A stretch of DNA of 64,000 nucleotides from Candidatus Latescibacterota bacterium. GTDB lineage: Bacteria; Latescibacterota; UBA2968; UBA8231. Position 1 is the stretch's first letter. Every line of letters begins with the position of its first letter. The notes below the pieces were generated by a model. The model had not been told where the DNA came from and ran no database searches. It saw only the letters and a list, made by a program, of their open reading frames with translations. This document shows, in pieces, positions 34,684-55,482 of the stretch. The position numbers were made by a program, and so were the translations under genes. The stretch is taken from NCBI GenBank assembly GCA_965204725.1, contig OZ242005.1:2720001-2784000 (forward strand), written 5' to 3'.

Positions 34684-36672
34684 TCAAATCTGCGTCAAAA
34701 AGCTGCCCATCTGCCCGGTGATGTAATCGGCCACCAGCCAAAGGCCGGCCGCGACCACTTCCCCGAGAATCAGCCCCAGAAAGAACGGACGCAGGTTCCG
34801 GTATAGCCGCGGCCCCCCATACTTGAGAATTACCAGTTTGAGCAGCCAAGCGATGAGCGCACTGGCAAAGATGTGCCCGGTTTTCCAGTTCGCGCTAATG
34901 GCATAGCCGAGCGGGTTGAGCGGCCACCACAACAGGTGGTGCCGCACCCACATTAGCAAGGCCATCACTCCGCCGCCGATCCCCATGAACAGCCATGCGT
35001 CGAGGCGCGGCCCGGTCAATTCCGCTGCAATGCGCGGGGCCATGTCCTTGGGGCCGTACGTGGCGGCCCCCCAGCCAAAGAACAGGCCGTTGAGGTTGAT
35101 GCCGCCGTATTTGTACGCCAACGCCATGGTGACATAAGAAGAGCCGACCAAGCTGACCACGATGGCGACGATTACCGCCCAGAACAACCGCCGCTTCCCG
35201 CCCTTGATCGCCTCGCTCATCTTTAGGCCGTTGGCGACCGACGACATTACAAACGAGCGGATTTCCGAGTGCCAGCCGTAAGAAAACCCCAAGGCCACCA
35301 AACCAGCGGCCCCCAAGCTAGAAGCCCCGGCCCCGGAAATCACAAAGGTCGAGGTCATAATGGGGGGGCGCATCGCGGGAATACCTCCTTCGGCGACCAC
35401 GCGCGTCAGGCCCAAAAACAGCACCATGGCCCCAAAGATAAACATCGCCACGCCCAACGGCGGCAGCCCAGCCATCCACAGGCCCAATCCCACCAAACCA
35501 AGCGACGCCAGCAAGCCCGAGGTCGCCTGCCGATACGACAAAATTTCGTCGGCATCCTCTACGGTTGGATCGCCGGACCACGCCTTCCGCCACACGGCCC
35601 GCAAGTGCCCGCGTGCCACCCACAGCCCGACCAGCACAAAGACGATCATCGCCCCCATGCCCTGATGGGCTAGGTACGGCTCCCGCGAGTATAAATCCAT
35701 CCGCTCGGTGCTTTGCAGGCCGAGGACGTTGAAGACTCCCCGTTGCACTGTGGTCAGGATGTAGAACACCCAGATAGACGCGGAAATATCCAAGTTGACA
35801 AAGTAAAAGAAGCCGATCCAAGGCGGGCTAAACCACAAGTCCAAGCGCACACTATCGCGGAACAGAGGCAGCGACGCAGTCCGCGCCAGCTCGGGCACCT
35901 CTGGGAAATAGGCGTGTAAGCCGTTGATGCTGAGCAAGATGAAGGCGCACGCAAACCCCAGCCACATCGCCTTATTGACAAAAAACGCCCGCCCAATAGC
36001 TCGCCCTTGCTCGCGCTGAATCATCTCCATCGGCACTTGGACCAACGGATACGCCAGCTTCTCCCGATCGACCCATTGCCGGCGCAGGATGACCATCGTG
36101 CAAATCATCGCGGCGCTGAGTGCCAAGAAGAAGCCGTACCAATAGGTCAGCGGCAGCACCCACGCGCCCCAAGGAACGGCGACCCCTTCGGGCAGCCCCT
36201 CAAAGAAGTAGCGCGCGACGTTTTCGCCGCGCGGGATCATCCACGCGGGGATGTACTGGTTGTATAAAAAGTCCCAGTTATTCTCCGGCGTCGCGTAGTA
36301 CGTAGAGCCGACCAAACAGGGAATGATAAATTGGGTAAACCCCATCCCGGGAATGCAGCAGGCGACCACCAACATGACGTAGATGGTAATCAGCTCGGAT
36401 TGGGTCAGGGCCAAGGAGCGGCGCAAGCAGTACACGAGGCCGCTGGCCGGTACTAAGAAAAAGAAAAAAAAGAGAGCGGCTGGCGTACTAAAATTTAAGG
36501 TGAGGTACGAGCCGCGAATGATGGTCGTGGCGTACGCGTCTAGACCATTGAGCAGCAAGGCGAGCACTGCGCCGATTAGGATGCCCCGCACCGGGATACC
36601 GGCACCATCTTGCGGCCCGTCCTCGGCCGAGTTCGCCCATTCGAGGTATGCTGGAGGAATCCGCTTTTTCAA
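34684..36672 (-). CDS. DUF6785-family polytopic membrane protein (OPT-like putative transporter)
   Basis: YYATPENNW, VPW.AW..PL, RRQW...EKL.YPL, RVVAEGG, WWPLNPLGY, PFFLGLILG. TTG start. Confidence 0.8.
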   Translation of the reverse strand: MKKRIPPAYLEWANSAEDGPQDGAGIPVRGILIGAVLALLLNGLDAYATTIIRGSYLTLNFSTPAALFFFFFLVPASGLVYCLRRSLALTQSELITIYVMLVVACCIPGMGFTQFIIPCLVGSTYYATPENNWDFLYNQYIPAWMIPRGENVARYFFEGLPEGVAVPWGAWVLPLTYWYGFFLALSAAMICTMVILRRQWVDREKLAYPLVQVPMEMIQREQGRAIGRAFFVNKAMWLGFACAFILLSINGLHAYFPEVPELARTASLPLFRDSVRLDLWFSPPWIGFFYFVNLDISASIWVFYILTTVQRGVFNVLGLQSTERMDLYSREPYLAHQGMGAMIVFVLVGLWVARGHLRAVWRKAWSGDPTVEDADEILSYRQATSGLLASLGLVGLGLWMAGLPPLGVAMFIFGAMVLFLGLTRVVAEGGIPAMRPPIMTSTFVISGAGASSLGAAGLVALGFSYGWHSEIRSFVMSSVANGLKMSEAIKGGKRRLFWAVIVAIVVSLVGSSYVTMALAYKYGGINLNGLFFGWGAATYGPKDMAPRIAAELTGPRLDAWLFMGIGGGVMALLMWVRHHLLWWPLNPLGYAISANWKTGHIFASALIAWLLKLVILKYGGPRLYRNLRPFFLGLILGEVVAAGLWLVADYITGQMGSFLTQI

Positions 36673-36699
36673 TTCCGTGCGCCTCGGCCATGGTTCAAG

Positions 36700-39201
36700 T
36701 CAGTACGCGTTAGCGACGAGTTTGGTAATCGTCGTTTGCTTGACTTGGGCGTCAACTTCTATGCCGACCCGACACAGATACAGGCCCGGTGGCGTCAGGC
36801 GGCCCTGATCGTCGCGCCCATCCCAAGTCAAACGATGCACTCCGGCGGCCGATGCCACCACCGGGGCCTTGTGCCGCACGCGCCGGCCGTCTAAGCCATA
36901 CACCTCTAGCACCAGCGCCTTGGCATTCTGCACCGCGAACACCGGGAACACCAATTCCACTACGTCGTTGATCCCGTCCCCATTGGGCGTAAACGGGTTG
37001 GCTGACGCGATCACCTCGCCCAACAGCCCGCCGCTAAATGGGGTCAACACCTGTAAGCGGCGGCCGGCATCGACTCGCTGCCACACGCGCTCGTCGCCTT
37101 CGCCCAAGCCCACTTGCACGGCAAAAGCATTGCTGGCAAGGTAGAGCACGCCCGAAAATTGCAACGCGACCAACTCCGCTTCGGCGGTCACGGGCGCGGG
37201 GAGCCGCACCCACAGCGAATCAGCCCCGGTCGGCAGCCGCGTCACGGGCACACGCTCCGCGCCCACGACCACTTCCTCTAAATCGACCGTCGCCCCGTGC
37301 GGCAATACCACGAGCACTTGGTCGAAGCCGCGATTGTCGGCTTGGAACTGCGGCTGCAAAGACAGCGTGAAGGTGGTGCGCTCCCCCCGCTGCTCGGTCT
37401 GCCGCGGCTGCACCTCGCCTAGGACTTGACTGGCCAAGGGCCGATCCAACGCGATGTGCATCCGGCGCAACAACGCCCCTTGGCCGGGGTCGTCCGAGCG
37501 CAACGTGGCCTCCACTATGGCGTACCGGCGCGGGCTGGGCGAGGCAATCGGCGCGTCCGAGGCCGCGTAGAACGGACTCCAAGAACTCCAGTCGGGGCCG
37601 GGGACTACTGAGACGGTCGAATCGCCCCGCTGAAAGCTGAGCAGCTTGCGATATTGGGCCGCGGTCACTTCTTTCCCGGCCGTGGTGAAGTAGTGGATTT
37701 CCTCGTCGAGCTGATTGCCGGTGCGCGTGCGAAATTGTACTTGAGTGCCTAGGGGAAGGTCGGCCGCCCAGTGAATGGAAGATAGGATGCGCGGGTCGCG
37801 GCCCAGCTCCATAGGCCCCGATTGGAGCGTCACCTGCGGGAGGAAGCCGCGGCCGTAAAGCTGGAGCTCGCGGATGCCGGCGTTGGCCCAATTCGGGACG
37901 ATGAGCACCCGGTAGTCCATCTTAAAGTAGCGCGCCTTGGTCAGCGGAAAGGCATTGTCCTGATAAAAAATGTGGGGGAATAACCCGCTGAAGCGGCCCG
38001 GCTCTTGATCGGCGGTTTCTCGCACGGCCAGCGCGATGTACGACAGGCTGCCGTCTGGGTTGCGCTGCCCATTCGAGAGGTTGATGGCGTAGTTGGGGAA
38101 CGCGCCGGTAAAGCCGTGGGCAATGTTTTCGCGGTCAAAGCCGATGACCACGCGGCTGATCCAGAACCAAGTCCCCAAGTCGAAGAGGAGCTCGCGGTCG
38201 AACTCTACGTCGATGTGCTCGCCGCCGCTGACGCCCACTTGCTCGGTCCACACGGTCTTGTAGTCGCCGTCAATGGCCAAGCGTTCCGTCCCAGTATTGC
38301 TCGTGCCTCCGATCAACCCACTCCGGCTCAGCGCGCCCAAGCTGATGTTGTCGCCTTGGGTCCACACCTCGACCTCGGCCAGCCGCGGTCGCTCCCGTCG
38401 ATAGTACTGAATTGGGCCGGCGCGCTCTGCGCTCAGTGCGGCGTGTTGGGCTTGATCGATCGGCCGCAAAATGCCCGAGGACTCGCGCAAGAAGTAGAGC
38501 ACGTCGCCGCGCTCTTCCGCCGGCAAGCGGTTCCAGCGGGCCTCGCTGACTTCGTGCCCTTGGCCTCTCGCGCTGGCCGTAGCCACGATCTGGACGAACT
38601 GGAACATGTCGCCGACAAACCCGGCGTCCGCTTCCTGCGAGGGCTTGAGGTCAAACTCAAAGACGCGCTGGGTTTTGTTCAAGCCTTCGCTGCGGCCGGC
38701 CGGCGCGAAGCGGAGGGCCTTGCTCTGGGAGAAAGCCGGGAGGCCGTTGGACGTGAGCACCTTGAATTGCAGAAAGGGATCGCCCAAGCCTTCCGGGGCG
38801 AATTTTACCACGATCTTGTGCGCCCACACCAAGCGGCCCAAGTCGATTTCGACCCACCAATCGCGGAGGGGGGCGTCCAAGTCCGGCTCCCAGAAGGTTT
38901 GCTCTTGGCCGTCTATGATCTGGGCGGCCTCGGCCAAATGGACGCCTGCGGCCCGCACCCCGCCCGGTACGCCTTCGGCCGACACAAAGTTTGGAGCGTC
39001 TAGCACGGCGTTGATTTGCTCGCGAATCGAGTGCGGCCGCACCCCTTCCGGGCCGAATTGCACCGTGCCCGCGGCGACCTCCCATTGCGCCCAGTCGCTC
39101 TCGTCAACGGCGACTCGGTCCGCTGCGAGGCGGTAGCCTTGGGGCCACGCCGCCGGGGCCGCGATCAGCAGGGCGCAAGCAACCAGCCGCAACCAAGTCA
39201 C
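36700..39201 (-). CDS. Secreted protein with C-terminal FlgD-Ig/CHU_C-like domain
   Basis: GTG start overlapping the upstream stop; signal peptide; WWVEIDLGR, SPSPRRY, NPFTPNGDGIND, WDGRD. Confidence 0.8.
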   Translation of the reverse strand: MTWLRLVACALLIAAPAAWPQGYRLAADRVAVDESDWAQWEVAAGTVQFGPEGVRPHSIREQINAVLDAPNFVSAEGVPGGVRAAGVHLAEAAQIIDGQEQTFWEPDLDAPLRDWWVEIDLGRLVWAHKIVVKFAPEGLGDPFLQFKVLTSNGLPAFSQSKALRFAPAGRSEGLNKTQRVFEFDLKPSQEADAGFVGDMFQFVQIVATASARGQGHEVSEARWNRLPAEERGDVLYFLRESSGILRPIDQAQHAALSAERAGPIQYYRRERPRLAEVEVWTQGDNISLGALSRSGLIGGTSNTGTERLAIDGDYKTVWTEQVGVSGGEHIDVEFDRELLFDLGTWFWISRVVIGFDRENIAHGFTGAFPNYAINLSNGQRNPDGSLSYIALAVRETADQEPGRFSGLFPHIFYQDNAFPLTKARYFKMDYRVLIVPNWANAGIRELQLYGRGFLPQVTLQSGPMELGRDPRILSSIHWAADLPLGTQVQFRTRTGNQLDEEIHYFTTAGKEVTAAQYRKLLSFQRGDSTVSVVPGPDWSSWSPFYAASDAPIASPSPRRYAIVEATLRSDDPGQGALLRRMHIALDRPLASQVLGEVQPRQTEQRGERTTFTLSLQPQFQADNRGFDQVLVVLPHGATVDLEEVVVGAERVPVTRLPTGADSLWVRLPAPVTAEAELVALQFSGVLYLASNAFAVQVGLGEGDERVWQRVDAGRRLQVLTPFSGGLLGEVIASANPFTPNGDGINDVVELVFPVFAVQNAKALVLEVYGLDGRRVRHKAPVVASAAGVHRLTWDGRDDQGRLTPPGLYLCRVGIEVDAQVKQTTITKLVANAY

Positions 39202-39911
39202 GCCAGCCTTTCCTCTCGCACCGGCTGGCACGCCGCGATGAATTCCTCAGCCGTGGTGGTATAGCCGATCAGGTGTTCAAAGTTGCGCAGCGTGATCCGG
39301 TTGATCCAACCGCCTTCCGGTAGGCTGTCGTCTAGCGTGTCTGGCATCTCGATAGTACCGGGGGCGTTTGAACAATCGCGCAAGAGAATGACGCGGTAAT
39401 TCCGCCCTACGGCTTCGGCGCAGGTGTAGTGCAAGCAGGCCCGCCGGCTGTAGCCGACGACGAACAGCGTCTTAATGCCATAGCTGCGCAAGTGCTGGTC
39501 CAAAAAGGTGTCGTGGAAGCCACTCCAGATCCACTTGGGAAAATTGCGCTCGTCGGCGAGGGGGGCCACGCAGTCGAGGTATTCGGGTTTGTATTCTTGC
39601 CGCGCCCAGCTTGCAATGCCGTCGTCCCCGCTGCGTTCCTTGGTCTTGCCCCAGACCTCGCCCACGATGTTGCCGGGATCGGCCACCAAGCGCAGGTCGT
39701 TGTGGACATAGTTGACCAGCATCTTGCGGTCGCGGGCGGCTTGCAAGGCCGGCGCGATGAAGTTTTTGGTCGTTGGATTGGGCGAGCGCCCATCGACATC
39801 GACCAAGAGAAAGGCGCACTCGGCGAACTGTAAGGCTAGGGTCTCGTACCCGTAGTCGTACCCGCCGGGATAATCCTTGTAATAGCGAATGGGGATTTGA
39901 ATGGTGGTCAT
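39198..39911 (-). CDS. Cysteine hydrolase / isochorismatase family
   Basis: LLVD, K..WSGF.DT.LD..LRS.GIKTL.VVG....C, Y.VILLRDC. GGAGG RBS. Confidence 0.85.
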   Translation of the reverse strand: MTTIQIPIRYYKDYPGGYDYGYETLALQFAECAFLLVDVDGRSPNPTTKNFIAPALQAARDRKMLVNYVHNDLRLVADPGNIVGEVWGKTKERSGDDGIASWARQEYKPEYLDCVAPLADERNFPKWIWSGFHDTFLDQHLRSYGIKTLFVVGYSRRACLHYTCAEAVGRNYRVILLRDCSNAPGTIEMPDTLDDSLPEGGWINRITLRNFEHLIGYTTTAEEFIAACQPVREERLA

Positions 39912-39938: not shown

Positions 39939-41846
39939 TTAGTAAACTATCGCTATGGTCCCCGCTCGCTGGTCGCCGCCTTTTTCCGACTCCACGGATA
40001 GGCGATACACGTACAGGCCCGGGGGCACCTGCGCGCCGCTTGCGTCGCGGCCATCCCAAGAAAAGCGCAGGTCGCCGCTGGGCTGTTGCCCGTCGTGGAT
40101 CACCCGCAGCGAGCGGCCCGACAGGTCGAAGACCGCGAGGCGCAAGGGCACTTGTTGGGTTACTTGCAACAGCTTAAAAGAGAAGTGAATGTGCTCGTTT
40201 ATCCCGTCGCCATTGGGGGTGGCAATTTTCGGCTGCACGATTAGGTCGTCGAGCAGCCGACGGGAAATTGAGGTGCGGACCGTGAGGACCTCGCTCGCTA
40301 TCTCATTGGCCGCATTGCCGCGATTGATGGGTTGCGCCAGCTCTAGGGGGCGCTGGGTATCCCGCACCCAGCCGCGGAAAGTCGTGCCGTAGCGCAGCAC
40401 CAGAGCGCGGAAGAAGACCTCGACCACCCCGCCAGAATCCCCGGCCGTGCGCGGGGGAAACAGGGCCACCGAAAAGCGCAGCGAATCCGGCGCGATATGC
40501 ACGGCAAAACTGTCTAAGCCGGTGGCTTGGACCGAATCCACACCGACCACGCCAAAGGGCGCGGCGATTTCTATCGCGTCAAAACCAGAGTGCTCGGCGC
40601 GGATGAGCGGCTGAATGGCATACTGGAACGACGCGATTTCGCCCAAGGCGACCTCGGGGGGATAGATTTCGCCCAGCACCTCCTCGGCGAGCGGCGGCTT
40701 GGTCGCCGAGAATTCGATGAACGCTAGCTCGCCGCCCTCGCTGCCTACGGGCAAAAAATCGACCCGCAGTTGAAAGACCGAGTTGGGGCCGGGCGAGGCG
40801 ATGGGCGTGCCGCTGCTGTCGGCAAAGGCGTAGGGCGACGACCAGAAGCTCCAGTTGTCCGTGTCGTAGGTGATTTCGCCGGCCTCGCCCGGTTTGAGAA
40901 AGAGATAGTCGGTCGCGTCGAGGGGCTGGCCGGCTTCGTCGAGCGACGTTACCTCATCGCCCCGGCCGGTGAATCGCCAGTACACGTTTGGATCGCGATC
41001 GTTGCCGGCCCGCGATTGGATCCAGACGCGGGCGCGGGGGTCTTTGCGACCGCGCCAGCGGATGTCGCCCCACACGGCCGGCTCGCCGAGGTCGATAAAC
41101 GGGCCGACGTACGACGCTTGGTGCGCGTAGCCCACGCCATAGACCTCCAATTCGCCGATCCGCAGGGCCTTGGGCGACGCGCGGTAGAGCAACAGGCCCA
41201 CGCTGCGGGCGAGGGCCGGAGGAAAGCGCACGTCTATGGTGTCTTGCACGTTTTCGGGCAGCTCAAACACGAGCTGACCGCCGAGGCGAGCGGCACCATA
41301 CCCGGATACGTTGTCTTTTTTTTGCACGCCTAGATCGGCGGTTACATCCAACTTGTCGGGATAGAGACCGCTCTCAGCGGCGACGATCCGCACCCGGTTG
41401 ACAAAGAACAGGCCGCCGAGGTCCATGGTGATGCGCCGCGTCTCCAAGTAGCGCTGGCCGGTGAATCGGCTCTGAATGCCCTCCACCCACTCCCAGAACG
41501 TCGCCCGATCGGCGTCGATCATGTTCTTGGAGAGATCGGTGATGGAATAGCTCGCGACCCCGCTCACCCGCACGTAAGGCCCCCCGCGCCGGTCGGCACT
41601 GGTGAGGGCGATATTGGTTGCTGGCGTCAAAAAGATCGGCCGCAGCGTTCCGGCGGCGAGTGCCCCGGCGTCGAGGCTTTGTTCCTCCGCAAAGTCGCTC
41701 CAAGACAGTTGATGGAAATTCACGCCGGCTTGGCTTGGTCGGGGTACGTCCTCGCCGCCGAGGCGGTAAATCTCCACGGCCCCGCCCTTTCCGGCCGCGA
41801 GGGCCGCGACCCCGAGGGCGGCCGCGAGTAAGGTCCTTTTTCTCAT
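39939..41846 (-). CDS. Secreted protein with C-terminal FlgD-Ig/CHU_C-like domain
   Basis: Signal peptide; DLGG.F.VNRVR, WSFWSSPY, GEIYP, TPNGDGINE, WDGRD...VPPGLY. Confidence 0.8.
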   Translation of the reverse strand: MRKRTLLAAALGVAALAAGKGGAVEIYRLGGEDVPRPSQAGVNFHQLSWSDFAEEQSLDAGALAAGTLRPIFLTPATNIALTSADRRGGPYVRVSGVASYSITDLSKNMIDADRATFWEWVEGIQSRFTGQRYLETRRITMDLGGLFFVNRVRIVAAESGLYPDKLDVTADLGVQKKDNVSGYGAARLGGQLVFELPENVQDTIDVRFPPALARSVGLLLYRASPKALRIGELEVYGVGYAHQASYVGPFIDLGEPAVWGDIRWRGRKDPRARVWIQSRAGNDRDPNVYWRFTGRGDEVTSLDEAGQPLDATDYLFLKPGEAGEITYDTDNWSFWSSPYAFADSSGTPIASPGPNSVFQLRVDFLPVGSEGGELAFIEFSATKPPLAEEVLGEIYPPEVALGEIASFQYAIQPLIRAEHSGFDAIEIAAPFGVVGVDSVQATGLDSFAVHIAPDSLRFSVALFPPRTAGDSGGVVEVFFRALVLRYGTTFRGWVRDTQRPLELAQPINRGNAANEIASEVLTVRTSISRRLLDDLIVQPKIATPNGDGINEHIHFSFKLLQVTQQVPLRLAVFDLSGRSLRVIHDGQQPSGDLRFSWDGRDASGAQVPPGLYVYRLSVESEKGGDQRAGTIAIVY

Positions 41847-46328: not shown

Positions 46329-46583
46329 TCAGTTCAGCACCTTCAACAGGATGGTCAGTTGTAGCCCCACAACGCCGAACAGAATGCCAATAATCCAGCG
46401 GTTGGTCGCACGAAGCTCGGCAATGGCTCGCTCAATGCTGTCCATGCGGGCGTTGACTTGGCGGAATTGTTCGCCCATCCCGCGTTGTATATCGTCCAAG
46501 CGGCGGTCGAGCTGCTCGGCGATGCCTTCTAGCCGTCCAATGCGGCGGTCGTGGTCTTGAGCTTGGGTAATCGGTTCGTTCAT
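46329..46583 (-). CDS. Small coiled-coil protein with C-terminal TM helix (DUF1640/XhlA-like)
   Basis: DRRIGRLEG heptads then RWIIGILFGVVGL; paralog of 47781-48011. Confidence 0.8.
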   Translation of the reverse strand: MNEPITQAQDHDRRIGRLEGIAEQLDRRLDDIQRGMGEQFRQVNARMDSIERAIAELRATNRWIIGILFGVVGLQLTILLKVLN

Positions 46584-46646: not shown

Positions 46647-46686
46647 AAAAAAACCGCCATGCCAGGTCGGAAGCCCGGCATGGCGG
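46647..46686 (-). terminator. Rho-independent terminator
   Basis: Minus strand CCGCCATGCC...GGCATGGCGG stem followed by TTTTTTT, just downstream of the 46712 stop. Confidence 0.9.
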
Positions 46687-46711
46687 CACTCGATCTACGC
46701 GCCAAAAGCAA

Positions 46712-47599
46712 CTACTTGGCAAACGTGGATTTGATCCGGCCCCAGCCCACTTCCTCTACGGATGTTCCCTCGCCAGCCATGACTTGGGAAGCCCAGTCGA
46801 TGTCCGGGTCGATGGGCGCGAGCAGAAAGTCGGAGAGCAAATCGCCTTGGAAGTAGCTGTCTGTGGCTCCGCTCAGAGTCCAGTAGCCCTCGTAGCCGGC
46901 ACTTTCCAAATCGTCGTCGTCGATGATGGTGAAGTGAAAACCAATGATGTTGCCCTCGACCAACGTGCCGATAGTGCTCTGGTCAATCCCGTTCCAGTTC
47001 AGGTTGTCGAACGGGGTCAGCATGTACTCGGCCCGGAAGAAGCCTTCCCCGCCTTCCTCGGCCGTCTGGGTGGAGGCAAACTGCCCGTAGGGCGGCTCGG
47101 TGATCCACTGAGCTTTGCCCCAGTGGTTCAGACCCGGGCCACCCTGATTGAAACCATAGTTTTGGGCGTGGGCACCGTGCAGCAGATCCTTCTGGTCTTG
47201 GTCTTCCACGTCGGCCCACACGTTGAACATGCCGCCGCTGTGGTCTGCGTCGAACACCATCTCCATAGGCTCCCAGCCGGTGATGACCCAGATAGCATCG
47301 TCGAACCGATCTTCCATGACGTAGAGCTTGTTGGTGTTGGGGTTCCAGCCGACGATGGCCCGCAAAGCTAAGTCGGTGGCGTCCCACGCGGTGCCTACGC
47401 CTCGCACGGTCTCGGTGAGTTGCTCGTGGTTGATCCAGTAGCCTTCGGGGATGACGTCCCACTCGATGAGGTTGCCGTCGATGGTGGGAATGTTGGCGTC
47501 GGGAAACTGCACGGCGGGGAACACCACATCTGCGGGCAGGTGTGCCCCAACAGGGACCGCCGCGAGGGCGAGGGCAAAAATCAGGGCGAGCTTTTTCAT
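46712..47599 (-). CDS. Secreted CBM9/DOMON-like protein with C-terminal WGRIK motif
   Basis: MKKLALIF signal peptide, PTIDGNL.EW, D.DHSGG, IIGF...IIDDD; ends TSVEEVGWGRIKSTFAK. Confidence 0.75.
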   Translation of the reverse strand: MKKLALIFALALAAVPVGAHLPADVVFPAVQFPDANIPTIDGNLIEWDVIPEGYWINHEQLTETVRGVGTAWDATDLALRAIVGWNPNTNKLYVMEDRFDDAIWVITGWEPMEMVFDADHSGGMFNVWADVEDQDQKDLLHGAHAQNYGFNQGGPGLNHWGKAQWITEPPYGQFASTQTAEEGGEGFFRAEYMLTPFDNLNWNGIDQSTIGTLVEGNIIGFHFTIIDDDDLESAGYEGYWTLSGATDSYFQGDLLSDFLLAPIDPDIDWASQVMAGEGTSVEEVGWGRIKSTFAK

Positions 47600-47671: not shown

Positions 47672-47701
47672 ATTGTACGGAATTTGCTTCTCATTTGTCA
47701 A
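47672..47701 (-). promoter_or_regulatory. Sigma70 promoter of the WGRIK-tailed gene
   Basis: Minus strand TTGACA-18 nt-TACAAT with an AT-rich upstream tract. Confidence 0.7.
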
Positions 47702-47780: not shown

Positions 47781-48011
47781 ATGAGTGAACCAATTACGCC
47801 GCAGCAAGACCACGACCGCCGTATAGGACGAATGGAAGGCATCGCCGAGCAGTTAGACCGCCGTTTGGACAGCATTGAGCGGGCGGTTGTCGAGCAAGGC
47901 CACCAACTGCGGCAAGACATCCGCGAGCTACGCGCCAGCGTCCGCTGGCTCATCGGCATTCAGTTCGGCGTAGTGGGCTTGTTGGTATCCATCCTGTTGA
48001 AGCTGAATTAA
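47781..48011 (+). CDS. Small coiled-coil protein with C-terminal TM helix (paralog of 46329-46583)
   Basis: MSEPITPQQDHDRRIGRMEGIAEQLDRRLD...RWLIGIQFGVVGLL; AAGGA RBS. Confidence 0.8.
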   Translation: MSEPITPQQDHDRRIGRMEGIAEQLDRRLDSIERAVVEQGHQLRQDIRELRASVRWLIGIQFGVVGLLVSILLKLN

Positions 48012-48028: not shown

Positions 48029-49882
48029 GTGTTGTACCTATTCGGCCTGCTCCTCGCCCTTGCCTGCGAAGCGTACGCGCTCGACGACAGGCCGCTGGCC
48101 CAAGTGGGCGCGGAGCTGATTACCGAGCAGGACTATCGCCGGTTTGTCGCTGGCTTGCCCGAGTGGACCCAGAGCACGGCCGATGGCCGCGACCAAGTGC
48201 GCGACTATCTGCAATCCCTCGTCGACCGCGCCCTCATCTTGCGCGCCGCGCGGGCGCAGCAGGTGGAGCAAAGCGCGGCCGTGCAAGAAAACATGGCAGC
48301 GGCCCGGCGGCTAAAAGTGACGCAGGCAATGGAGCAGCGCTACATCCGCCCCGCTGTCTCGGTTAGCGAAGCCGCGCTACGGCGCGTATATGCCGCGCAG
48401 GGGTGGGAGCGGCAGCTCAAGATCGCCCACATTTTCACGCGGACGCAACCGCCGGCCGTAGCGGCCCTCGCCGCCCTGCACGCGGGCCGGGCCTTTGCAG
48501 AAGTGGCGCGCGAGTTTTCGCAAAACCGCACCACCGCGGCGCACGGCGGGGAAAAGCCGTACTATTACAGCCGCATCAACGCCATCCCGGCCGTGCGCGA
48601 TTCCCTGTTTAGCTTGCCCAAAGGTGCAATCTCTGCCATCCTCCCCGTTCCCAAGGGGTACGAGATTTTCAAAATCCTCGACGAGCGCACGGCTTCCTAC
48701 GAGCAAATGCGGCCGCAAGTCCTCAAGGCCGTTATGCGAGAGCGATTGCAGGCGCGGCGGCGGGCGTACATCGACTCATTGGCCGAGCGGTTCCAATGGC
48801 AGGAGGTTGCCGCGGGCATGGCCCGGCTCACGCGCATCTTGCGCAGCGGCGAGCAAGCGGGCGACAGCAAGGTCTTTTACCTCTCCGACGCCGATGCCAC
48901 GACCCCGCTGTACACGTACCGGGGCGGCGCGATCAGCGTGGGCGAAGCCGTGAGCCGCTCGCAGTTTATTCGCCAAGGGCGGTATGTGGAGGACAGCCTG
49001 AAGGTGGCCCATTACTTGGAGCGCGACGTGAAGGGGCCGCAGCTTCTCCTGCTGCAAGGCCGCGCCTTGGGGATTGAGCAAGAGCCGGCGGTCGCCGACT
49101 GGCTGGCGCGCAAAAAGGAAGAGCTCCTCATCCGCGCCATGCGGCGTCTCGCCACGGCCCACGCAAAGCCGGTGACCGAGCAAGAGATGCGCGCTCACTA
49201 CGAGGCGCACCCGAGCCAGTACCGAACTTCGTCGATGGTAGAAATCGTGGAAATACAGGTCGAGGAAGAGGCCCAAGCGCGCGAATTGCTGGCGCGGATA
49301 CGCGCCGACCGGCAGCGCGCCGCGCCCCTGATTGCTCTCCTCGCCGAGCTAGCAAAGGACGGGCGCACGGTGAGCGCGTTGCAGGACCTCAACGACGAAC
49401 TCGCGGTGTATGGCTGGCTCAAGCAGCGGCTGAGCGACCCGCTGGGCGCGGCGCAAATCGCCGCAGAGGTTGCCCAAGCGACCGGCCCGGCCGAGCTCGC
49501 CGAGACCTACATCGCGCGGCAGCTTGCGGCCTCGTACAGCGTGCGCCACGGCAGCCGCGAAGCCGAGGGCCGCTACGCGCTCTATTGGCACGAGACGCCG
49601 CGCTTTGGGCCGCTGGTCACAGCAGCCATGGAGGCCGAGGTCGGCGCGCTGATCGGCCCGGTAGAGCACCACGGCCTGTACTCGATCGCCAAGATCGTGG
49701 GGCGCACCGCAGCGGGGCGGCAGCCCTTTGCCGCCGTAAAGAAGCGCGTTGAGCACGCTTTGCGCGGCCGCCGCGAGAGTGCCTTGTTCGAGCAGTGGCT
49801 GCATGCGTTGCGGGCCGCGGCCGCGGCCGAAGTGGTCTTCTTCGACGACAACATCAACGCCCTAGGGCAGGACGCGCCGTGA
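48029..49882 (+). CDS. Periplasmic parvulin-type peptidyl-prolyl isomerase (SurA/PrsA-like, two PpiC domains)
   Basis: Signal peptide, LQSLVDR.L, IAHI, G.AFAEVAREFS, GYEIFK, second degenerate rotamase domain. Confidence 0.75.
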   Translation: MLYLFGLLLALACEAYALDDRPLAQVGAELITEQDYRRFVAGLPEWTQSTADGRDQVRDYLQSLVDRALILRAARAQQVEQSAAVQENMAAARRLKVTQAMEQRYIRPAVSVSEAALRRVYAAQGWERQLKIAHIFTRTQPPAVAALAALHAGRAFAEVAREFSQNRTTAAHGGEKPYYYSRINAIPAVRDSLFSLPKGAISAILPVPKGYEIFKILDERTASYEQMRPQVLKAVMRERLQARRRAYIDSLAERFQWQEVAAGMARLTRILRSGEQAGDSKVFYLSDADATTPLYTYRGGAISVGEAVSRSQFIRQGRYVEDSLKVAHYLERDVKGPQLLLLQGRALGIEQEPAVADWLARKKEELLIRAMRRLATAHAKPVTEQEMRAHYEAHPSQYRTSSMVEIVEIQVEEEAQARELLARIRADRQRAAPLIALLAELAKDGRTVSALQDLNDELAVYGWLKQRLSDPLGAAQIAAEVAQATGPAELAETYIARQLAASYSVRHGSREAEGRYALYWHETPRFGPLVTAAMEAEVGALIGPVEHHGLYSIAKIVGRTAAGRQPFAAVKKRVEHALRGRRESALFEQWLHALRAAAAAEVVFFDDNINALGQDAP

Positions 49883-50757
49883 TCCAACGCGAGCGCCGCA
49901 AGCTGATCGCGCCCCTGCTCGGGCCAGCGCTCGGGCTGCACATCGCGTTCTTTGTGCTGCCCGTGTGCAACGCGTTTTACTATTCCCTGACTTCTTGGTC
50001 GGGCGTGTCGCCGGAAAAGGAGTACATCGGCCTCGCCAATTTTGGCCGCGCCTTGGCCGATCCGACCTTTCGCACGGCCTTAGAGAACGTCTTTTTGTTC
50101 GGCGTCCTCGGGTTCGTGGTCGTCTTTCCGCTGAGCCTGCTGTTCGCGGTGGTCCTCGCCCAAAAGCCGCCCTTTGCCGGATTCCTAAAATTCGTGGTCT
50201 TTGCCCCGACCCTGCTCTCGGTCGTGGTCACGGCCGTGCTGTGGGGCAGCATCTACAACCCGGTCATCGGCCTGCTCAACGAAACCCTGCGCGGCGTCGG
50301 GCTAGACGCGCTCGCTCGCCCTTGGCTGGGCAGCCGCCACAACGCCCTGCCAGCCATTGCCATCGCCATGATCTGGCAGGGGTTGGGCACGTACGTGATC
50401 CTGTTTTTGGCCGGCCTGCAAAAAATTCCGCTTAGTTTTTACGAGGCCGCCGAGCTGGATGGGGCCAATGCTTGGCAGCAATTTTGGCACGTGACCCTGC
50501 CGCTGCTGTGGGACGTCGTGCAGATTCTGGTCGTTTTCTGGATCATCGGCGCCTTTCAGGCGTTTGCCCTCATCTTCGTCATCACGCGCGGCTACCCCAA
50601 CGTCATTGAGGTGCTGGGCACGTACATCTACTGGGCCGGCTTTCAGGGGCAGAGCATCGGCTATGCCTCGGCCATGGGGGTCATCATGTTCTTCCTCGTG
50701 TTGGCGTTTAGCCTCGCGGTCAATCGCCTGATGCGCCGCGAGCGCGTGGAATACTAA
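49879..50757 (+). CDS. Carbohydrate ABC transporter permease
   Basis: GTG start overlapping the upstream stop; YEAAELDGA..WQQFWHVTLP, IGYASA. Confidence 0.92.
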   Translation: MIQRERRKLIAPLLGPALGLHIAFFVLPVCNAFYYSLTSWSGVSPEKEYIGLANFGRALADPTFRTALENVFLFGVLGFVVVFPLSLLFAVVLAQKPPFAGFLKFVVFAPTLLSVVVTAVLWGSIYNPVIGLLNETLRGVGLDALARPWLGSRHNALPAIAIAMIWQGLGTYVILFLAGLQKIPLSFYEAAELDGANAWQQFWHVTLPLLWDVVQILVVFWIIGAFQAFALIFVITRGYPNVIEVLGTYIYWAGFQGQSIGYASAMGVIMFFLVLAFSLAVNRLMRRERVEY

Positions 50758-50758
50758 G

Positions 50759-51586
50759 ATGCGCCGCTTGCCCAAGTTGCTGGCCATCCTGTTTATGGGA
50801 AGCTATTGCCTGAGTTCCCTAATCGCCCTCGGCTGGGTGGCCTATACCTCCTTTAAGACCAATCCCGAGTTCTTTGCCAGCACTTGGGCCTTGCCGGCCG
50901 AATGGCGCTGGAGCAATTACGCATACGCTTGGGACAACGCCGAAATTGGCCGCTACTTTTTTAATACCGCCTATATCACCGCGCTCGCCGCACTCGGCAC
51001 TTTAGCGGCGTCGGCTATGGCCGCCTACATTCTAGCGCGGGTGATCTTCCCGTTTCAACGCTTCACCCTCTACCTCTTCCTGTCGGCCATGATGGTGCCG
51101 CCCATGCTGTACCTCTTCCCGCTCTTCGTGCAGATGCGGCATTTGCACCTAACCAACAGCCACTTTGGGTTGATCGCACTCTACATCGCCACCGGGCTGC
51201 CCTTTTCGATCTTCGTCCTGACGGGTTTTTTCAAGACCCTGCCAACCGAAATGGAAGAGGCCGCGCTGATTGACGGGGCCTCGCCGTGGCGGACCTTTTG
51301 GATGATCGCCCTGCCGCTGGCCAAGCCCGGGCTCATCGCGGTTTCCATCTTCAACTGCATCAACTACTGGAACGAGTTTTTCTGGTCGCTCATTCTCCTC
51401 CGCACCGGCAAGCTCTACACGCTCGCTCGCGGCCTGCAAACCTTGTTTTGGAACATGTCAACCGAATCGCGCTGGACCGAGTTGTTTGCCGGGCTGGTGA
51501 TCGTCATGCTGCCCCTGATCGCGGTGTTCATCCTGTTGCAGAACCGCATTACCGAGGGCCTGACCGCCGGCGCGCTAAAGGGCTGA
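50759..51586 (+). CDS. Carbohydrate ABC transporter permease
   Basis: EEAALIDGAS, PLAKPG, WNEF, GLTAGALKG. Confidence 0.93.
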   Translation: MRRLPKLLAILFMGSYCLSSLIALGWVAYTSFKTNPEFFASTWALPAEWRWSNYAYAWDNAEIGRYFFNTAYITALAALGTLAASAMAAYILARVIFPFQRFTLYLFLSAMMVPPMLYLFPLFVQMRHLHLTNSHFGLIALYIATGLPFSIFVLTGFFKTLPTEMEEAALIDGASPWRTFWMIALPLAKPGLIAVSIFNCINYWNEFFWSLILLRTGKLYTLARGLQTLFWNMSTESRWTELFAGLVIVMLPLIAVFILLQNRITEGLTAGALKG

Positions 51587-51719
51587 CATCCGATTGGCGT
51601 CATGCCGTTGACATTGTGTTGCCTCAATCGTGATTTTACATCATCGTCCGAAAAATTGCCCGCAAACCAATGCTTCTTGGGAGATGAAGTCGATCCTTTG
51701 ATCGACGAGGAGACTTGCC

Positions 51720-54161
51720 ATGATGCGTTTATGGAGAATGTTACTAGCTATAATAATCATTGCCATTTTCGCTGGGGGTGCTCCGCTCTGGGGCCATGTA
51801 GAAGACGGAGAAATCACGGGCAAGCCGCTAAGAGCCATAAGAATCCATGCTACTCCCCCTAAAATCGACGGCCGCTTAGACGATTTAATCTGGCAGCGCG
51901 CCCCTGTCTTTACAGGATTTACTCAGCGGCGACCCGATACGGGACAGGCGGCGACCGAATCGACGACCGTACAATTTGCTTACGACGACAAAGCACTGTA
52001 CGTCGGTGTTATGGCCTTTGATCGCCAGCCCGAGCACATAGTGGCTCGTCTCGCCCGCCGCGATCAGTGGTCAGAAGCAGATTTCATCCAGATTGCCATC
52101 GATGCCCACCACGATCATCAGACGAACTTTGTGTTCCAAGTATTCGCCGGCGGCTCCCTGACAGATGGGTACAATTACGATGATGGACAGGGTTGGGACA
52201 GTGCCTGGGATGGGGTCTGGCAAGCGCGGCAAAGTCGGCATGAGAACGGGTGGTGTGTAGAATACAAAATTCCCTACCAAGCGCTCCGCTTCAGTCCCCA
52301 AGAGAAATACACTTGGGGCATCAATGTAATTCGCTACATAAGTCGCAAAAAAGAAGATGTCTATTGGCGTATGATTCCGCTTGAGCAAAGCGGTTGGCCC
52401 TCGCACTTTGGCCATCTCGAAGGTATTGAGCAGATCATTCCCCCTAAACCTTTGGAGATTATGCCTTATATCGTCGGCCGATCCACCTTTATCGCCGACA
52501 ATGGGTCCGATAGCCGCGATCTCTTCGGCAATCTGGGGGTTAATATGCGCTACGGCCTGACCTCGGGCCTCTCGCTCAACGCCACAGTCAATCCAGACTT
52601 CGGGCAGGTGGAGGCCGACCCGGCCGTACTAAATCTTTCCGTCTTTGAGACCTTCTTTGAGGAGCGGCGTCCCTTTTTCGTCGATGGTGCCGATAATTTC
52701 CGCACGCCGATCCAGCTTTTCTATTCCCGTCGCATTGGCAAGCAGCCCGGCTTCAATCGCATCCCCAGCGGTTTTGAAATGGTGGACCGACCAGATTTTA
52801 CCACCATTTTAGGAGCCGTAAAAATAATGGGTAAGACGACCGGCAAAACCAGCTTTGGGTTCATGGAAGCACTTACCGCTAGAGAGTATGCCTCGCTGGA
52901 AAGTGTGGAGGAAGAAAAAAACCGTCGTGATTTTATTCTCGAACCGCGCTCCCACATCTTGGTGGGCCGAGTACAACAAGATCTCTTTCAAGGCAACTCT
53001 CACATTGGCCTGACCGGTACGAGTCTCAATCGACACAAGGCGGCCGACGCGTACTCTGGAAGTGTGGATTGGTGGCTGCATTCGGGGCAAAACGCATACG
53101 ATTTCTGGGGACAGATCGCCGGTAGCCAAATCGGATCGGCCGCCGACCGGAAGAGGGGGTGGGGCAACGAGATGGCCGTAGGCAAGCGGAGCGGCTGGCT
53201 ACGAGGAGAATTCCATTGGCAAGCCTACTCAAAAGACTTTGAAATCAATGATCTGGGTTTTCTATGGCGGAACAACTACTACGAAACTCGGTTGCAACTC
53301 GCGCTGCGCAAAGATCGTCCGTGGAGTTTTTTCCGTCGGAACAGCCTGAACATCAGGCAGTGGCGGCGCTGGAACTTCGACGACGTGGTACTGGCAAACG
53401 GCATCGGCTTGAGCACTTGGCATCAGTTCAAGACCTATTGGGAACTCTTTGGATCAATAAACCATGATTTTCGCACTCAGGACGATCTAGATACCCGGGG
53501 TGGGCCGCTCATCGTCCGGCCCGCTAGCACAGATTTTGAGCTTCATATCGAAAGCGACGATCGTCGAGCCATAAGTAGCCGACTCGGCTTTTCTTGGGGA
53601 AACGACGTGGAAGGGAGCTCTTGGCGCACGATGGCATTGAGCGTAGAAATTAAACCCGCTGATCATATCGAGTATCACTTTCAGCCGCGCTATCAGTGGG
53701 GTTTCGACGATGCACAGTGGGTTGGGAATATAGATACCGATGGGAATGGCACAGTTGAACACTTCGTATATGGAACCCTGCGTAGCAAGACGCTCGATCT
53801 GACGACCCGACTCAATGTGATCTTCAGCCGGGATCTGAGCCTAGAGCTCTATGTGCAGCCGTTTCTGGCGGTTGGGACCTACAAAAACTTCAAGGAACTA
53901 ACCAGCCCGAGTTCGTATCTGTTTACCCCGTATTCAGAGTTGGGTTACAATCCCGATTTTCGCCGCCGTTCACTACAAAGTAACATGGTCCTGCGTTGGG
54001 AATATCGTCCGGGCAGTACCTTATTCTTGGTGTGGTCCCAAGCGAACAGTGCGTTCTCTTCAGAGCCTTCCTTCCGCCCGCTGAAGAATATAGGGGAGAG
54101 TTTCCTAGACGCTGGTTCGGATATTTTCTTTGTCAAGGCAAATTACTGGCTATCATTATAG
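51720..54161 (+). CDS. CBM9 + DUF5916 outer-membrane protein
   Basis: PKIDGRLDD..W, NPDFGQVEAD...LNL..FETFFEERRPFF, LFYSRRIG, LRWEYRPGSTLFLVW, terminal VKANYW. Confidence 0.88.
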   Translation: MMRLWRMLLAIIIIAIFAGGAPLWGHVEDGEITGKPLRAIRIHATPPKIDGRLDDLIWQRAPVFTGFTQRRPDTGQAATESTTVQFAYDDKALYVGVMAFDRQPEHIVARLARRDQWSEADFIQIAIDAHHDHQTNFVFQVFAGGSLTDGYNYDDGQGWDSAWDGVWQARQSRHENGWCVEYKIPYQALRFSPQEKYTWGINVIRYISRKKEDVYWRMIPLEQSGWPSHFGHLEGIEQIIPPKPLEIMPYIVGRSTFIADNGSDSRDLFGNLGVNMRYGLTSGLSLNATVNPDFGQVEADPAVLNLSVFETFFEERRPFFVDGADNFRTPIQLFYSRRIGKQPGFNRIPSGFEMVDRPDFTTILGAVKIMGKTTGKTSFGFMEALTAREYASLESVEEEKNRRDFILEPRSHILVGRVQQDLFQGNSHIGLTGTSLNRHKAADAYSGSVDWWLHSGQNAYDFWGQIAGSQIGSAADRKRGWGNEMAVGKRSGWLRGEFHWQAYSKDFEINDLGFLWRNNYYETRLQLALRKDRPWSFFRRNSLNIRQWRRWNFDDVVLANGIGLSTWHQFKTYWELFGSINHDFRTQDDLDTRGGPLIVRPASTDFELHIESDDRRAISSRLGFSWGNDVEGSSWRTMALSVEIKPADHIEYHFQPRYQWGFDDAQWVGNIDTDGNGTVEHFVYGTLRSKTLDLTTRLNVIFSRDLSLELYVQPFLAVGTYKNFKELTSPSSYLFTPYSELGYNPDFRRRSLQSNMVLRWEYRPGSTLFLVWSQANSAFSSEPSFRPLKNIGESFLDAGSDIFFVKANYWLSL

Positions 54162-54174
54162 CAACCCTACAACC

Positions 54175-55482
54175 ATGAACCGCCGCGACGTCCTCAAATA
54201 CCTCGCTGCCGCTTTCGCCAGCGGGTGCGGCCGGTACTTACCCGGGGAAAACGCGCTGGAGATCGCCAACCTCCAGCCGCCGGCCGCGCAAGTGCCGATC
54301 AATCAGCTTATGTGGCGGGCTGTGGAGCGCTTCCGCGAGACGCACCCGGAAGTCCAAGTCGAGCCAGCCAGCGGTGGCGGTGGCGGCTACCAAGAATTGA
54401 TGATCCGCGTCATGGAGGGGCATCCGCCGGACATCATGTCCTTTGCCACGGCCGAGACCGGCCTTACCTACGCCTACGTCGAGCAGGGGCACGTCCTCGA
54501 TATAACCGAGTACCTCCAGCGGCCCGCTTGGGATACCCCGGGCAAGACTTGGCTGGAGACCATCGACCCGCTCTACCGAGAGCCGCTGACGTACCAAGGC
54601 CGCTTTTACGCCATCCCCCAAAACGTGATTTCCCTCCAAGTGTATTGCAACGCCGAGCTGTACCAACGCGCCGGGGCCGACCTCAATCCGCAGACTTGGG
54701 ATCAGTTTCTCGACAACTGCGCGCGCCTCAAACGCGCCGGTATCGTCCCCATTACCCAAGACGGCATCCACTGGTACACGAGCTGGTGGTTCGATCACCT
54801 CGCCCAGCGCATCCTCGGCGCAGACAAAGTGCGCCAAGCCTTCCGCGACCCCCAGCGCCGAACCCCATGGACCGAACCCGGGTTTCTCCAAGCCGCCCGC
54901 ATGGTCGAACAGATGCTGGATCGGGGGTACTTCGCCGAGGGGTTTGCCGGCCTCAACCACATCGAGTCCGAGCTTTTGTTCTGGCAGGGGCGGGCGGCGA
55001 CCGTGTTTGTGGGCAGTTGGTTTACCAGCGGCCGAGCCGAAGTCATCGGGGAGGATTTCCCCTTGTACGCGTTTCGCTTTCCCGCAGTTGAAGGCGGGCG
55101 CGGGAATCCCCGCGACTTGATCGGCACGGTCAACACCCAGAGCATCCCCGCTTTGGCGCGCCAGCCCGAGCGGGCGGCCGAGTTTCTGCGCTTGGTAAAC
55201 AGCCGCTGGTTCCAAGCGCAGATGGTGCAACAGGCCCAGATGATCAGCCCGCTGGTCGGGATGCCGCTGCCCGGCAGCCAACAAGGCTTAGATCAGGTGC
55301 TCGCCGAGACCGAGCGGTTCTACTCGTTTTCCTTTGGGCTAGAAGGGGCGCACCCGTTTTTGTATCGCCAATACTGGAACGAGTGGAACCAGTTCATGGT
55401 GGCGCGCGAGCTATCGGCGACCCAACTCGTGGAAAATCTCGAAAGCATTTTTACTCGGTATTACGGGCACTTCGCGGCCTAG
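54175..55482 (+). CDS. Sugar ABC transporter substrate-binding (lipo)protein
   Basis: Tat-like NRRDVLK plus lipobox ASGC; F.ETHP.V.V, PPDI, YAIP, PQTWDQF. Confidence 0.88.
   Translation: MNRRDVLKYLAAAFASGCGRYLPGENALEIANLQPPAAQVPINQLMWRAVERFRETHPEVQVEPASGGGGGYQELMIRVMEGHPPDIMSFATAETGLTYAYVEQGHVLDITEYLQRPAWDTPGKTWLETIDPLYREPLTYQGRFYAIPQNVISLQVYCNAELYQRAGADLNPQTWDQFLDNCARLKRAGIVPITQDGIHWYTSWWFDHLAQRILGADKVRQAFRDPQRRTPWTEPGFLQAARMVEQMLDRGYFAEGFAGLNHIESELLFWQGRAATVFVGSWFTSGRAEVIGEDFPLYAFRFPAVEGGRGNPRDLIGTVNTQSIPALARQPERAAEFLRLVNSRWFQAQMVQQAQMISPLVGMPLPGSQQGLDQVLAETERFYSFSFGLEGAHPFLYRQYWNEWNQFMVARELSATQLVENLESIFTRYYGHFAA

Follow-up and report, generated by a model that had tools for sequence, protein, structure and literature searches.

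The 64-kb window analyzed here, part of contig OZ242005.1 of a Candidatus Latescibacterota genome, contains a minus-strand gene run (46306-34684) encoding a 901-residue outer-membrane beta-barrel of an unnamed family together with three proteins that carry C-terminal secretion tails. This run is one copy of a cassette found 27 times in the genome, and it belongs to a real, conserved envelope system that is undescribed in the literature searched (supplements and subscription journals lay outside the coverage, here and for all literature statements below), as the first-pass annotation of the window had also held. We propose, giving the idea roughly even chances, that the cassette serves proton-powered uptake across the outer membrane independently of SusC/SusD. 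The core genes of the window copy and their transcription signals are given below; open reading frames (ORFs) and coordinates are positions within the window, and those prefixed C1 lie elsewhere in the genome.

36700..39192, minus strand: long member of the tail trio, 830 aa if begun at the start given by the GC model, with the ORF staying open to 39231; core
39939..41846, minus strand: short tail protein of subfamily A, 635 aa (paralog 2); core
41859..44564, minus strand: 901-aa outer-membrane beta-barrel of an unnamed family, ATG start (AlphaFold); core
44582..46306, minus strand: short tail protein of subfamily B, 574 aa (paralog 1), all-beta (AlphaFold); core
46653..46687, minus strand: 14-bp terminator hairpin with T-run, immediately 3' of the WGxIK gene
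46712..47599, minus strand: CBM9-like secreted WGxIK (here WGRIK) protein, 295 aa, lead gene of the operon; core
47672..47701, minus strand: near-consensus sigma-70 promoter (11/12, by consensus match) before the WGxIK gene
48029..49882, plus strand: peptidyl-prolyl isomerase (PPIase)/chaperone with two parvulin domains (Pfam Rotamase_2, two stretches), probably a lipoprotein; core

A cassette repeated across the genome and the phylum

The ORFs named in the first-pass annotation are present at the places it gave, and the run is as tightly spaced as it reported, with 5-27 bp between adjoining genes. Its inventory had missed the 27-fold repetition, two coiled-coil ORFs and a left extension of the locus, as well as a proton motor and a TonB-like protein, and it is these last two that say most about a possible mechanism. 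Across the 5.43-Mb genome there are 39 barrel ORFs (one gene being split in two), 186 ORFs with FlgD/CHU_C-like tails, 31 WGxIK-family genes, 34 PPIases and 34 ORFs of the DUF6785 family; barrel-seeded grouping resolves these into the 27 cassettes, whose cores make up 7.5% of the genome. A tail gene is found within 10 kb of every one of the 39 barrel ORFs, a WGxIK gene near 34, a PPIase gene near 32, DUF6785 near 14 and DUF5916 near one, measured against the 12.7% of the genome that lies this close to a barrel. The best 80 of 433 outside loci used for comparison show the same composition (tail gene 80, PPIase 63, WGxIK 60, DUF6785 32), together with ABC (ATP-binding cassette) transporter genes at 8-10, a cysteine hydrolase at seven and DUF5916 at one. 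The co-occurrence is thus far beyond chance both in this genome and in its relatives, as the conserved synteny suggested at first pass would have it. It should be noted that one barrel gene and two tail genes are each split into two ORFs (C1:413189-415788, 5326476-5328544 and 1148931-1151248), for which decay and assembly errors are the candidate causes.

Similarity among the barrels is tracked by that of their partners, most closely by the long tail protein (Mantel r 0.83, 14 cassettes), followed by the WGxIK protein (0.71, 14 cassettes) and the PPIase (0.37, 15 cassettes), indicating that cassettes were copied as units; as kinship alone yields such correlations, they show linkage without implying binding. 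Barrel matches occur in 107 of the 168 genomes of the phylum. The closest named barrel records, at 94-95% identity, are labelled Candidatus Latescibacterota; as to the range beyond the phylum, one profile search gave Latescibacterota names alone, and many other hits as well as Atlas clusters are labelled Gemmatimonadota.

The tail proteins divide by their last residues into 103 that end in Tyr and 81 that do not. Among the Tyr-tail proteins longer than 450 aa, 77 of 102 lie in cassettes, as against 7 of 81 with other tails that lie near one, and Tyr-tail matches are found in 72 of 125 genomes at least 90% complete, in the same families as the barrel save for one borderline hit in family f3. 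In all 16 cassettes with three tail genes, a single long protein is accompanied by two short ones (p 2e-5 by permutation; one double cassette entered as two, cassettes with other tail numbers left out), and the members come from three different subfamilies (p 6e-4). Tandem duplication was considered as the origin of this trio and rejected, the nearest paralog being in the same cassette for just 9 of 77 tail proteins.

Barrel, motor and exported partners

AlphaFold models the mature 901-aa protein as a large outer-membrane barrel (pLDDT 80.8, pTM 0.78), and together with the fold searches this supports the barrel-like appearance noted at first pass. DSSP assigns 23 long antiparallel strands to the model between residues 119 and 873, probably ~24 in all if one N-terminal strand is counted, and two inserts, a beta-sandwich (mature residues ~220-399) and an Asp-rich loop (~480-597), would both face outward judging by strand parity. 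The earlier description of the protein as Asp-rich is true of this loop, a putative Ca-binding loop with 18.6% Asp and five Dx[DN]x[DN] motifs, whereas the protein as a whole is only mildly enriched (7.8% vs a genome mean of 5.9%). The N-terminal ~110 residues, a candidate plug, are conserved and poorly modelled, with pLDDT <50 over the first ~75.

Profile searches of the barrel returned no Pfam, NCBIfam or PDB-sequence match, and 30 of the 30 nearest Atlas clusters are without a common Pfam family. The top Foldseek matches are SlpA of Deinococcus, MtrB, LptD and the FimD/PapC ushers (E 1e-7 to 5e-5), at TM-scores of 0.16-0.27 and 7-11% identity, so that the likeness to these proteins is one of barrel architecture only. 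A second fold comparison likewise gave generic barrels (Z <=14, root-mean-square deviation (rmsd) about 10 Å, with 7-12 Å or more for the proteins just named), among them FimD (Z 9.5, rmsd 7.3, 343 aligned) and the PorV chain 6h3i_F (Z 10.1, rmsd 11.8, 224 aligned), with kinship to PorV neither shown nor excluded. TonB-dependent receptors appeared in these searches as generic barrels only, and no PorP/SprF chain was prominent. A complex predicted between the barrel and paralog 1's tail had a score of 0.00 and a mark of 0.32, which, being obtained without controls, is evidence neither way.

The link to a motor comes from a master operon present in four of four genomes from four families (G061, G041, G038 and this genome, C1 ~93.7-110 kb), in the order Tyr-tail gene, barrel of ~300 aa, one to three big barrels, TPR protein of ~1100 aa, ExbB and ExbD, with two ExbD genes in three of the four and one in G038. 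A DUF4159 gene follows the motor in G041 and in a second motor operon of this genome; its product consists of a membrane anchor, a linker and a globular head, with a His in the anchor in six of eight aligned sequences. The DUF4159 profile had matches in 52 of 101 genomes, each of them of a barrel-bearing family; a single genome of these families was without a match, as were all 48 of families f2, f3, f4 and f14. In G038, there are 15 DUF4159 and 16 barrel matches to one Tyr-tail match, and in 8 of the 10 regions read there the DUF4159 gene is ~2 kb or less from a barrel gene, with a WGxIK-tailed gene in six and DUF6785 in five; these gene counts indicate that the barrel persists without the trio. 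Motor and His-anchored transducer are therefore linked to the barrel at the level of the family, and none is encoded inside the window locus.

A comparable layout, TPR-tolQ-tolR-tolR, has been reported beside transducers with a vWA head, where the function is given as unknown (PMC12204202). Common to both are a gene for a TPR protein, a single ExbB/TolQ, a pair of unlike ExbD/TolR and a membrane-anchored protein in which a His and a linker go with a globular head; here this head is DUF4159 instead of vWA or TonB_C, and giant barrels are encoded in the operon alongside a tail protein and a PorV-like barrel. The main text of PMC12204202 does not mention Latescibacterota, and for DUF4159 the literature searched held a Pfam database article only. 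Two further arrangements were observed in this genome: the second motor operon (C1:243315-254918, L162) is without a big barrel and comprises DUF4159, ExbD, ExbB, TPR, a PorV-like barrel, a lipoprotein, WGxIK and a tail gene, with a near-identical copy of its PorV-like gene standing alone at C1:1653711; and four near-identical (78%) DUF4159 TonB-like genes (C1:2169239, 2187674, 4882861 and 4890464) lie in tandem arrays of secreted proteins with ordinary tails.

The three paralogs of the window share the sequence motifs described at first pass, except that paralog 2 has QSRAG and no PRRY. Their tails score 28.7-38.7 bits against FlgD_ig, above its cut-off of 27, and stay below the cut-offs of CHU_C (22.1-25.9, where 27 is needed) and of TIGR04131 (19.7 at the highest, where 35 is needed); a G041 relative, with 37.5, does exceed the one for CHU_C. 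A flagellar role was rejected, the FlgD_ig label reflecting the fold of the tail, and the flagellar rod family PF00460 had 0 matches in the genome, with a positive control in four genomes. The short protein of subfamily B is modelled with high confidence (pLDDT 93.3) as four beta domains without a catalytic domain: behind the signal peptide there is a beta-sandwich with an inserted CBM32-like domain, then an immunoglobulin (Ig) domain and the Tyr-ending tail. The stretch 42-201 resembles CBM32 modules (Z 15.0, rmsd 2.5, 129 aligned) and the stretch 447-554 the C-terminal domain of PorU (Z 12.8, rmsd 2.5, 100 aligned). The surface-binding nature proposed for the paralogs is thereby supported, a CBM32-like domain and an Ig-type secretion tail being what they carry. 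A T[SA][VI] linker precedes 38 of 67 ordinary tails and 4 of 96 Tyr-tails, against a background of 106 in 3050; its lack on 92 of 96 Tyr-tails is as expected (PMC9143113) if these tails stay uncleaved.

Consistent with export by a secretion system of type IX (T9SS), for which a genome check had been advised, SprA, PorV and a PorU adjoining PorV are present in the genome, and SprA_N matches occur in 160 of the 168 genomes of the phylum. GldM and GldN, the two motor proteins covered by the search, were not found in the genome in a search whose positive controls stayed silent, and PorP/SprF (PF11751) was likewise not found, again with a silent control. The small barrel of the master operon matches the PorV/PorQ family NF033709 at E 3e-9 to 3e-16, below the cut-off, and in one case TIGR03519 at E 6e-4. 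Shuttle genes directly behind the gene of a type-B cargo are a reported arrangement (PMC12618676); given its place directly behind the tail gene, the small barrel is likely the shuttle, and not the 901-aa protein. In the porU-porV operon (L041, C1:340-351 kb), we also observed a downstream 908-aa protease-like tail protein and a 1056-aa peptidase/propeller/barrel-like protein, both labelled by appearance. We found no literature on type IX secretion in Latescibacter.

Compared with the type-B cargo and PorP/SprF-type systems (SprB-SprF, PG1035-PorP-PorE; PMC9143113, PMC12618676), the cassette shares an apparently uncleaved TPNGDG-type tail, a PorV/PorP-like gene directly downstream of the tail gene of the master operon, and SprA, PorV and PorU in the genome. 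It differs in that its tails fall short of the CHU_C/TIGR04131 cut-offs and take the form of a complete Ig sandwich in the model, as the C-terminal domain of PorU does, that ~100 cargoes stand against three small-barrel genes, that the barrel adjoining the tails is probably ~24-stranded, and that GldM/GldN were not found, with the silent controls mentioned.

The lead gene of the operon encodes a protein whose family profile matches the CBM9 structure 1i82 (E 9.5e-5) and whose most conserved part is its tail, TSVE-x(2-4)-WGxIK. This tail is found on 47 proteins, 29 of the family and 18 unrelated ones mostly with signal-peptide-like starts, as against 0.25 expected, and in 37 of the 47 it comes with the T[SA][VI] linker known from the ordinary cargo of T9SS type, which makes it a candidate minimal sorting signal. 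The unrelated carriers include FGE-sulfatase-like and propeller-like proteins and small domains (e.g., C1:1115710-1116279, 2284477-2285364 and 3913027-3913920). None of WGRIK, WGxIK, WGQIK and WGKIK was found in the literature retrieved on tail motifs. The promoter before the gene counts by its position, sigma-70-type matches numbering two where shuffled sequences gave 4.5. A terminator directly follows 22 of 31 WGxIK genes, as against 12 in a sample of 524 other genes and none of the 39 barrels, which suggests that the lead gene is expressed far above the genes downstream and that its protein is probably the abundant product. Codon bias was discarded as a measure of expression, since it is shifted in the WGxIK genes (median 0.70 vs 0.64) and unshifted in the EF-Tu region (0.56). 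In the PPIase family, a loose lipobox pattern is present in 21 of 34 members.

On the proposed uptake mechanism, the 901-aa protein would be a plugged transporter barrel, folded with the help of the cassette's PPIase and opened by the DUF4159 TonB-like protein, whose His-bearing anchor, linker and head would be driven by ExbB-ExbD-ExbD; this motor, encoded once or twice per genome in the master operon, would be shared by the cassettes as TonB systems are. The abundant CBM9-like WGxIK protein may be the cognate binding partner and stand in for SusD, and the three tail proteins could be different subunits of one surface lectin assembly, exported via SprA and collected by the small PorV/PorP-like barrel with their tails kept. 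In the subtype represented by the window, a captured small carbohydrate or sugar acid would then enter through the ABC importer and/or DUF6785 and be passed to the hydrolase and the dehydratase. Gene content, repetition, co-occurrence, folds, the fixed trio and the master operon are observed; every physical interaction, the direction of transport and the substrate are our inference.

Genes tied to the subtype and inserts in the locus

The remaining features of the locus are accessory genes, its left extension and inserts:

22149..24617, minus strand: 822-aa fourth member of the tail paralogs, sharing 61% identity with the long one; here the locus ends on the left
26609..27730, minus strand: enolase-superfamily sugar-acid dehydratase, galactonate-dehydratase-like (NF010624, 300.6 vs 311 bits); left extension
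34684..36672, minus strand: DUF6785/DUF6784 inner-membrane protein (PF20581, E 2e-126), ~14 hydrophobic segments; accessory, conserved in the subtype
39198..39911, minus strand: isochorismatase-fold cysteine hydrolase (PF00857); accessory, restricted to the subtype
46329..46583, minus strand: small coiled-coil ORF of a dispersed family; insert, absent from 3/4 close orthologous loci
47781..48011, plus strand: another small coiled-coil ORF, sharing 65% identity with the one above; insert
49879..51586, plus strand: two CUT1 sugar-ABC permeases; accessory, conserved in the subtype
51720..54161, plus strand: CBM9-DUF5916 protein; recent low-GC insert outside the module
54175..55482, plus strand: sugar-binding lipoprotein of the ABC importer; nearest model NgcE, below cut-off

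We define the subtype as 13 loci with barrels 65-95% identical (L043-L055). Permeases and binding protein are found in eight of these loci, the hydrolase in seven and DUF6785 in 11; two of the five loci without ABC genes are short contigs, and the seven hydrolase genes among the best 80 outside loci are all of this subtype. Within cassettes, DUF6785, the ABC importer and the hydrolase are tied to this subtype alone. The ABC transporter assigned to the module at first pass stays linked to the subtype even in L055, where its genes are rearranged onto the same strand; most cassettes have no importer beside them. No ABC ATPase is encoded in the locus, three MalK-like ORFs being found elsewhere in the genome, and the binding protein scores 119.6 bits against the GlcNAc/chitobiose model NgcE, below the cut-off of 399.65. 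In all six close orthologous loci, DUF6785 is followed by the galactonate-dehydratase-like gene and then by the fourth tail gene, and in L043 the dehydratase adjoins DUF6785. Near cassettes, CUT1 permeases (6 of 10) and DUF6785 (16 of 33) are enriched over an 11% background.

DUF6785 had been counted among the genes of the module, of which it is no obligate member at the scale of the phylum: it is found in 0 of 13 genomes of the barrel-bearing family f10 and in 56 of 56 genomes of the barrel-less f2-f4, and is there independent of the barrel. Its Atlas neighbours are peptide/OPT transporters (0.77-0.79), which makes an OPT-like importer possible; a profile search against PDB sequences returned nothing meaningful, so that the OPT link stays an Atlas lead. 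No literature on DUF6785 was found. At C1:504829-511089, DUF6785 lies behind a peptidase/permease-like region of ~1450 aa in a 2086-aa ORF, and other DUF6785 genes adjoin similar large proteins.

The DUF5916 gene was rejected as a member of the module, with a GC content of 52.5% vs 62-64% around it, one occurrence among the best 80 outside loci and absence from four of four close orthologous loci. The two related coiled-coil ORFs stand back to back around the WGxIK gene and have ~25 dispersed relatives in the genome, with no Pfam match. An island of cytochrome P450, acyltransferase-3 with an ankyrin insert and MpaB/Lcp-type oxygenase (30451-34674, plus strand) is absent from six of six orthologous loci; together with an exporter, it splits the run of DUF6785, dehydratase and fourth tail gene in this window. 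To the right of the ABC genes (56377-61470) there are genes for a Gfo/Idh/MocA oxidoreductase, a KduD-like dehydrogenase and two sulfatases, none of which was seen next to the ABC transporter in those orthologous loci that were read. Farther left, the window contains two tandem near-identical nucleotidyltransferase-HEPN-like fusion genes (13431-15019, labelled by sequence appearance), a 1094-aa DNA methyltransferase-like protein (16600-19884) and a separate small methyltransferase-like gene (5319-6239), the last two labelled by motifs.

Uptake, display, docking or export

Among the closest known systems is the polysaccharide utilization locus (PUL) of the Bacteroidota, in its usual SusC/SusD sense. 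Repeated, co-diverged cassettes with one outer-membrane barrel, CBM-fold binding proteins and sometimes an importer are common to both, as is a motor shared in trans. The barrel here is larger and unrelated in sequence, the binding proteins carry secretion tails in place of lipid anchors, degrading enzymes show no enrichment in the sample scanned (see below) and each cassette has a dedicated PPIase. No SusC/SusD family match was obtained: SusD (PF07980) had 0 matches in the 94%-complete genome with a positive control in Bacteroides, and the barrel is without a SusC-type match, so that the module is free of SusC/D as the first-pass annotation had it. Its broader idea of a functional PUL analogue is carried by the binding folds and by the linked inner-membrane importer and catabolic enzymes, present in this subtype only (ABC, DUF6785, dehydratase); the glycoside hydrolases or lyases of a PUL were not found among the cassette neighbours scanned. 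Ten sponge Latescibacterota genomes, which may or may not be of this lineage, were reported to hold only 124 genes for carbohydrate-active enzymes (CAZymes) by a strict three-tool rule (PMC12993501). Were the cassette to serve uptake, polymers would be less likely substrates than glycopeptides, sugar acids or small sugars. The unenriched sulfatases and the enriched neighbours listed next are also the main support for an adhesive role.

Several observations weigh against uptake. The commonest neighbours near cassettes, CRTAC1/ASPIC proteins (28 of 44), PMT-TPR glycosyltransferases (11 of 12) and an unnamed lipoprotein of ~250 aa (12 of 13), point to surface assembly, while sulfatases are at background (3 of 25, from two seeds) and no glycoside hydrolase or lyase was found among the 42 of 244 neighbours scanned. 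Most cassettes lack an importer, and 18 TonB-receptor (PF00593) matches at 17 loci elsewhere in the genome indicate that ordinary uptake exists; the barrel itself had no Plug, TonB-box or TonB-dependent receptor family match in a Pfam scan. In a quick tree, rooted for drawing only, the 34 expanded barrels of this genome, that of the window included, form a long-branched clade of their own apart from the motor-linked barrels, and no motor gene adjoins any of the 34, so that motor use by the window barrel is extrapolated. The G038 barrels form a clade separate from these 34, making two independent expansions likely. Finally, the Mantel and enrichment tests count paralogs as independent although they are related, and the phyletic matches rest on few independent losses, with profiles built from the same lineages.

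A possible, though less probable, alternative is a machine for surface display or adhesion, in which the barrel would be the platform on which a heterotrimer of lectins is assembled with the abundant WGxIK subunit; GT-C enzymes encoded nearby would glycosylate the assembly, which would grip host or particle glycans, with the motor positioning or moving it as in Agl-Glt. The fixed trio of one long and two short members from three subfamilies fits this, as do the step-down terminator behind the lead gene, as for a major subunit, the neighbouring CRTAC1/ASPIC, TPR and PMT-type glycosyltransferase genes and the occurrence of the TPR-ExbB-ExbD-ExbD layout beside vWA force transducers (PMC12204202). 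The barrel's likely strand number and its FimD match recall the ushers. Usher barrels have ~24 strands; no usher, PapD or pilin family match was obtained for the window proteins in Pfam and NCBIfam. This explanation has difficulty with G038, where 16 barrels go with one Tyr-tail protein, TonB-like genes are almost as many as the barrels, and WGxIK and DUF6785 genes often accompany them, and with the importer and catabolic genes conserved with this subtype.

It is improbable that the 901-aa barrel is a passive dock, a PorP/SprF-like holder of its neighbours' type-B tails without a role in transport, as a strict form of the first-pass annotation would have it. Barrel and Tyr-tail do share a phyletic pattern, both being missing from f2 and f4, the tails are without a cleavage-type linker, and barrel and long protein have co-diverged. 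Against this, known shuttles are 14-stranded (PMC9143113), whereas the 901-aa protein has three times their size and matched neither PF11751 nor TIGR03519; a small PorV/PorP-like barrel sits directly behind the Tyr-tail gene in the master operon; and barrels far outnumber tails in G038, G041 and G061.

Equally doubtful is a motor-driven channel that would export the Tyr-tail and WGxIK proteins independently of SprA. This could be read from G061 (96% complete, 60 contigs; C14 58-78 kb, L143, L144), where the motor operon, PorV, three of the barrels and a Tyr-tail protein are all present but two queries did not find SprA, and from the GldM and GldN searches with their silent controls. Yet SprA is so widespread in the phylum that the gap in G061 may be assembly loss, the tail has the PorU C-terminal-domain fold, and the lumen of a ~24-stranded barrel would be far smaller than that of SprA with its 36 strands (PMC9143113) for multi-domain cargo of 60-110 kDa. 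Chance clustering of unrelated expanded families accounts for some members, namely DUF5916, the coiled-coil ORFs and the P450 island as inserts, and is refuted for the core by the tail gene near every barrel, here and at the best 80 outside loci, the fixed composition and the co-divergence.

Returning to uptake, we tentatively suggest a wider reading, which we hold with less confidence than uptake itself: besides the TonB-dependent receptors, Latescibacterota may have another, unrelated class of outer-membrane transporter driven by protons, consisting of a ~24-stranded calcium-loop barrel, a DUF4159-headed TonB analogue, a T9SS-exported lectin heterotrimer and a WGxIK protein exported by a third type of sorting tail of ~15 residues, which the 18 unrelated proteins would use as well, the whole having been multiplied independently in at least two lineages for a PUL-like job. 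Active outer-membrane uptake is in general ascribed to a single family of proteins, that of the TonB-dependent receptors, and a second, unrelated ExbBD-coupled barrel family would, if true, widen this picture. It would also offer roles for testing, of DUF4159 as force transducer and DUF6785 as importer, together with a very short candidate sorting signal and a T9SS seemingly at work without a recognizable Gld motor, the GldM/GldN controls having been silent. Even if adhesion is the job, this is an undescribed envelope machine, and its share of the genome and presence in most genomes of the phylum indicate a system central to how these uncultured bacteria feed or attach.

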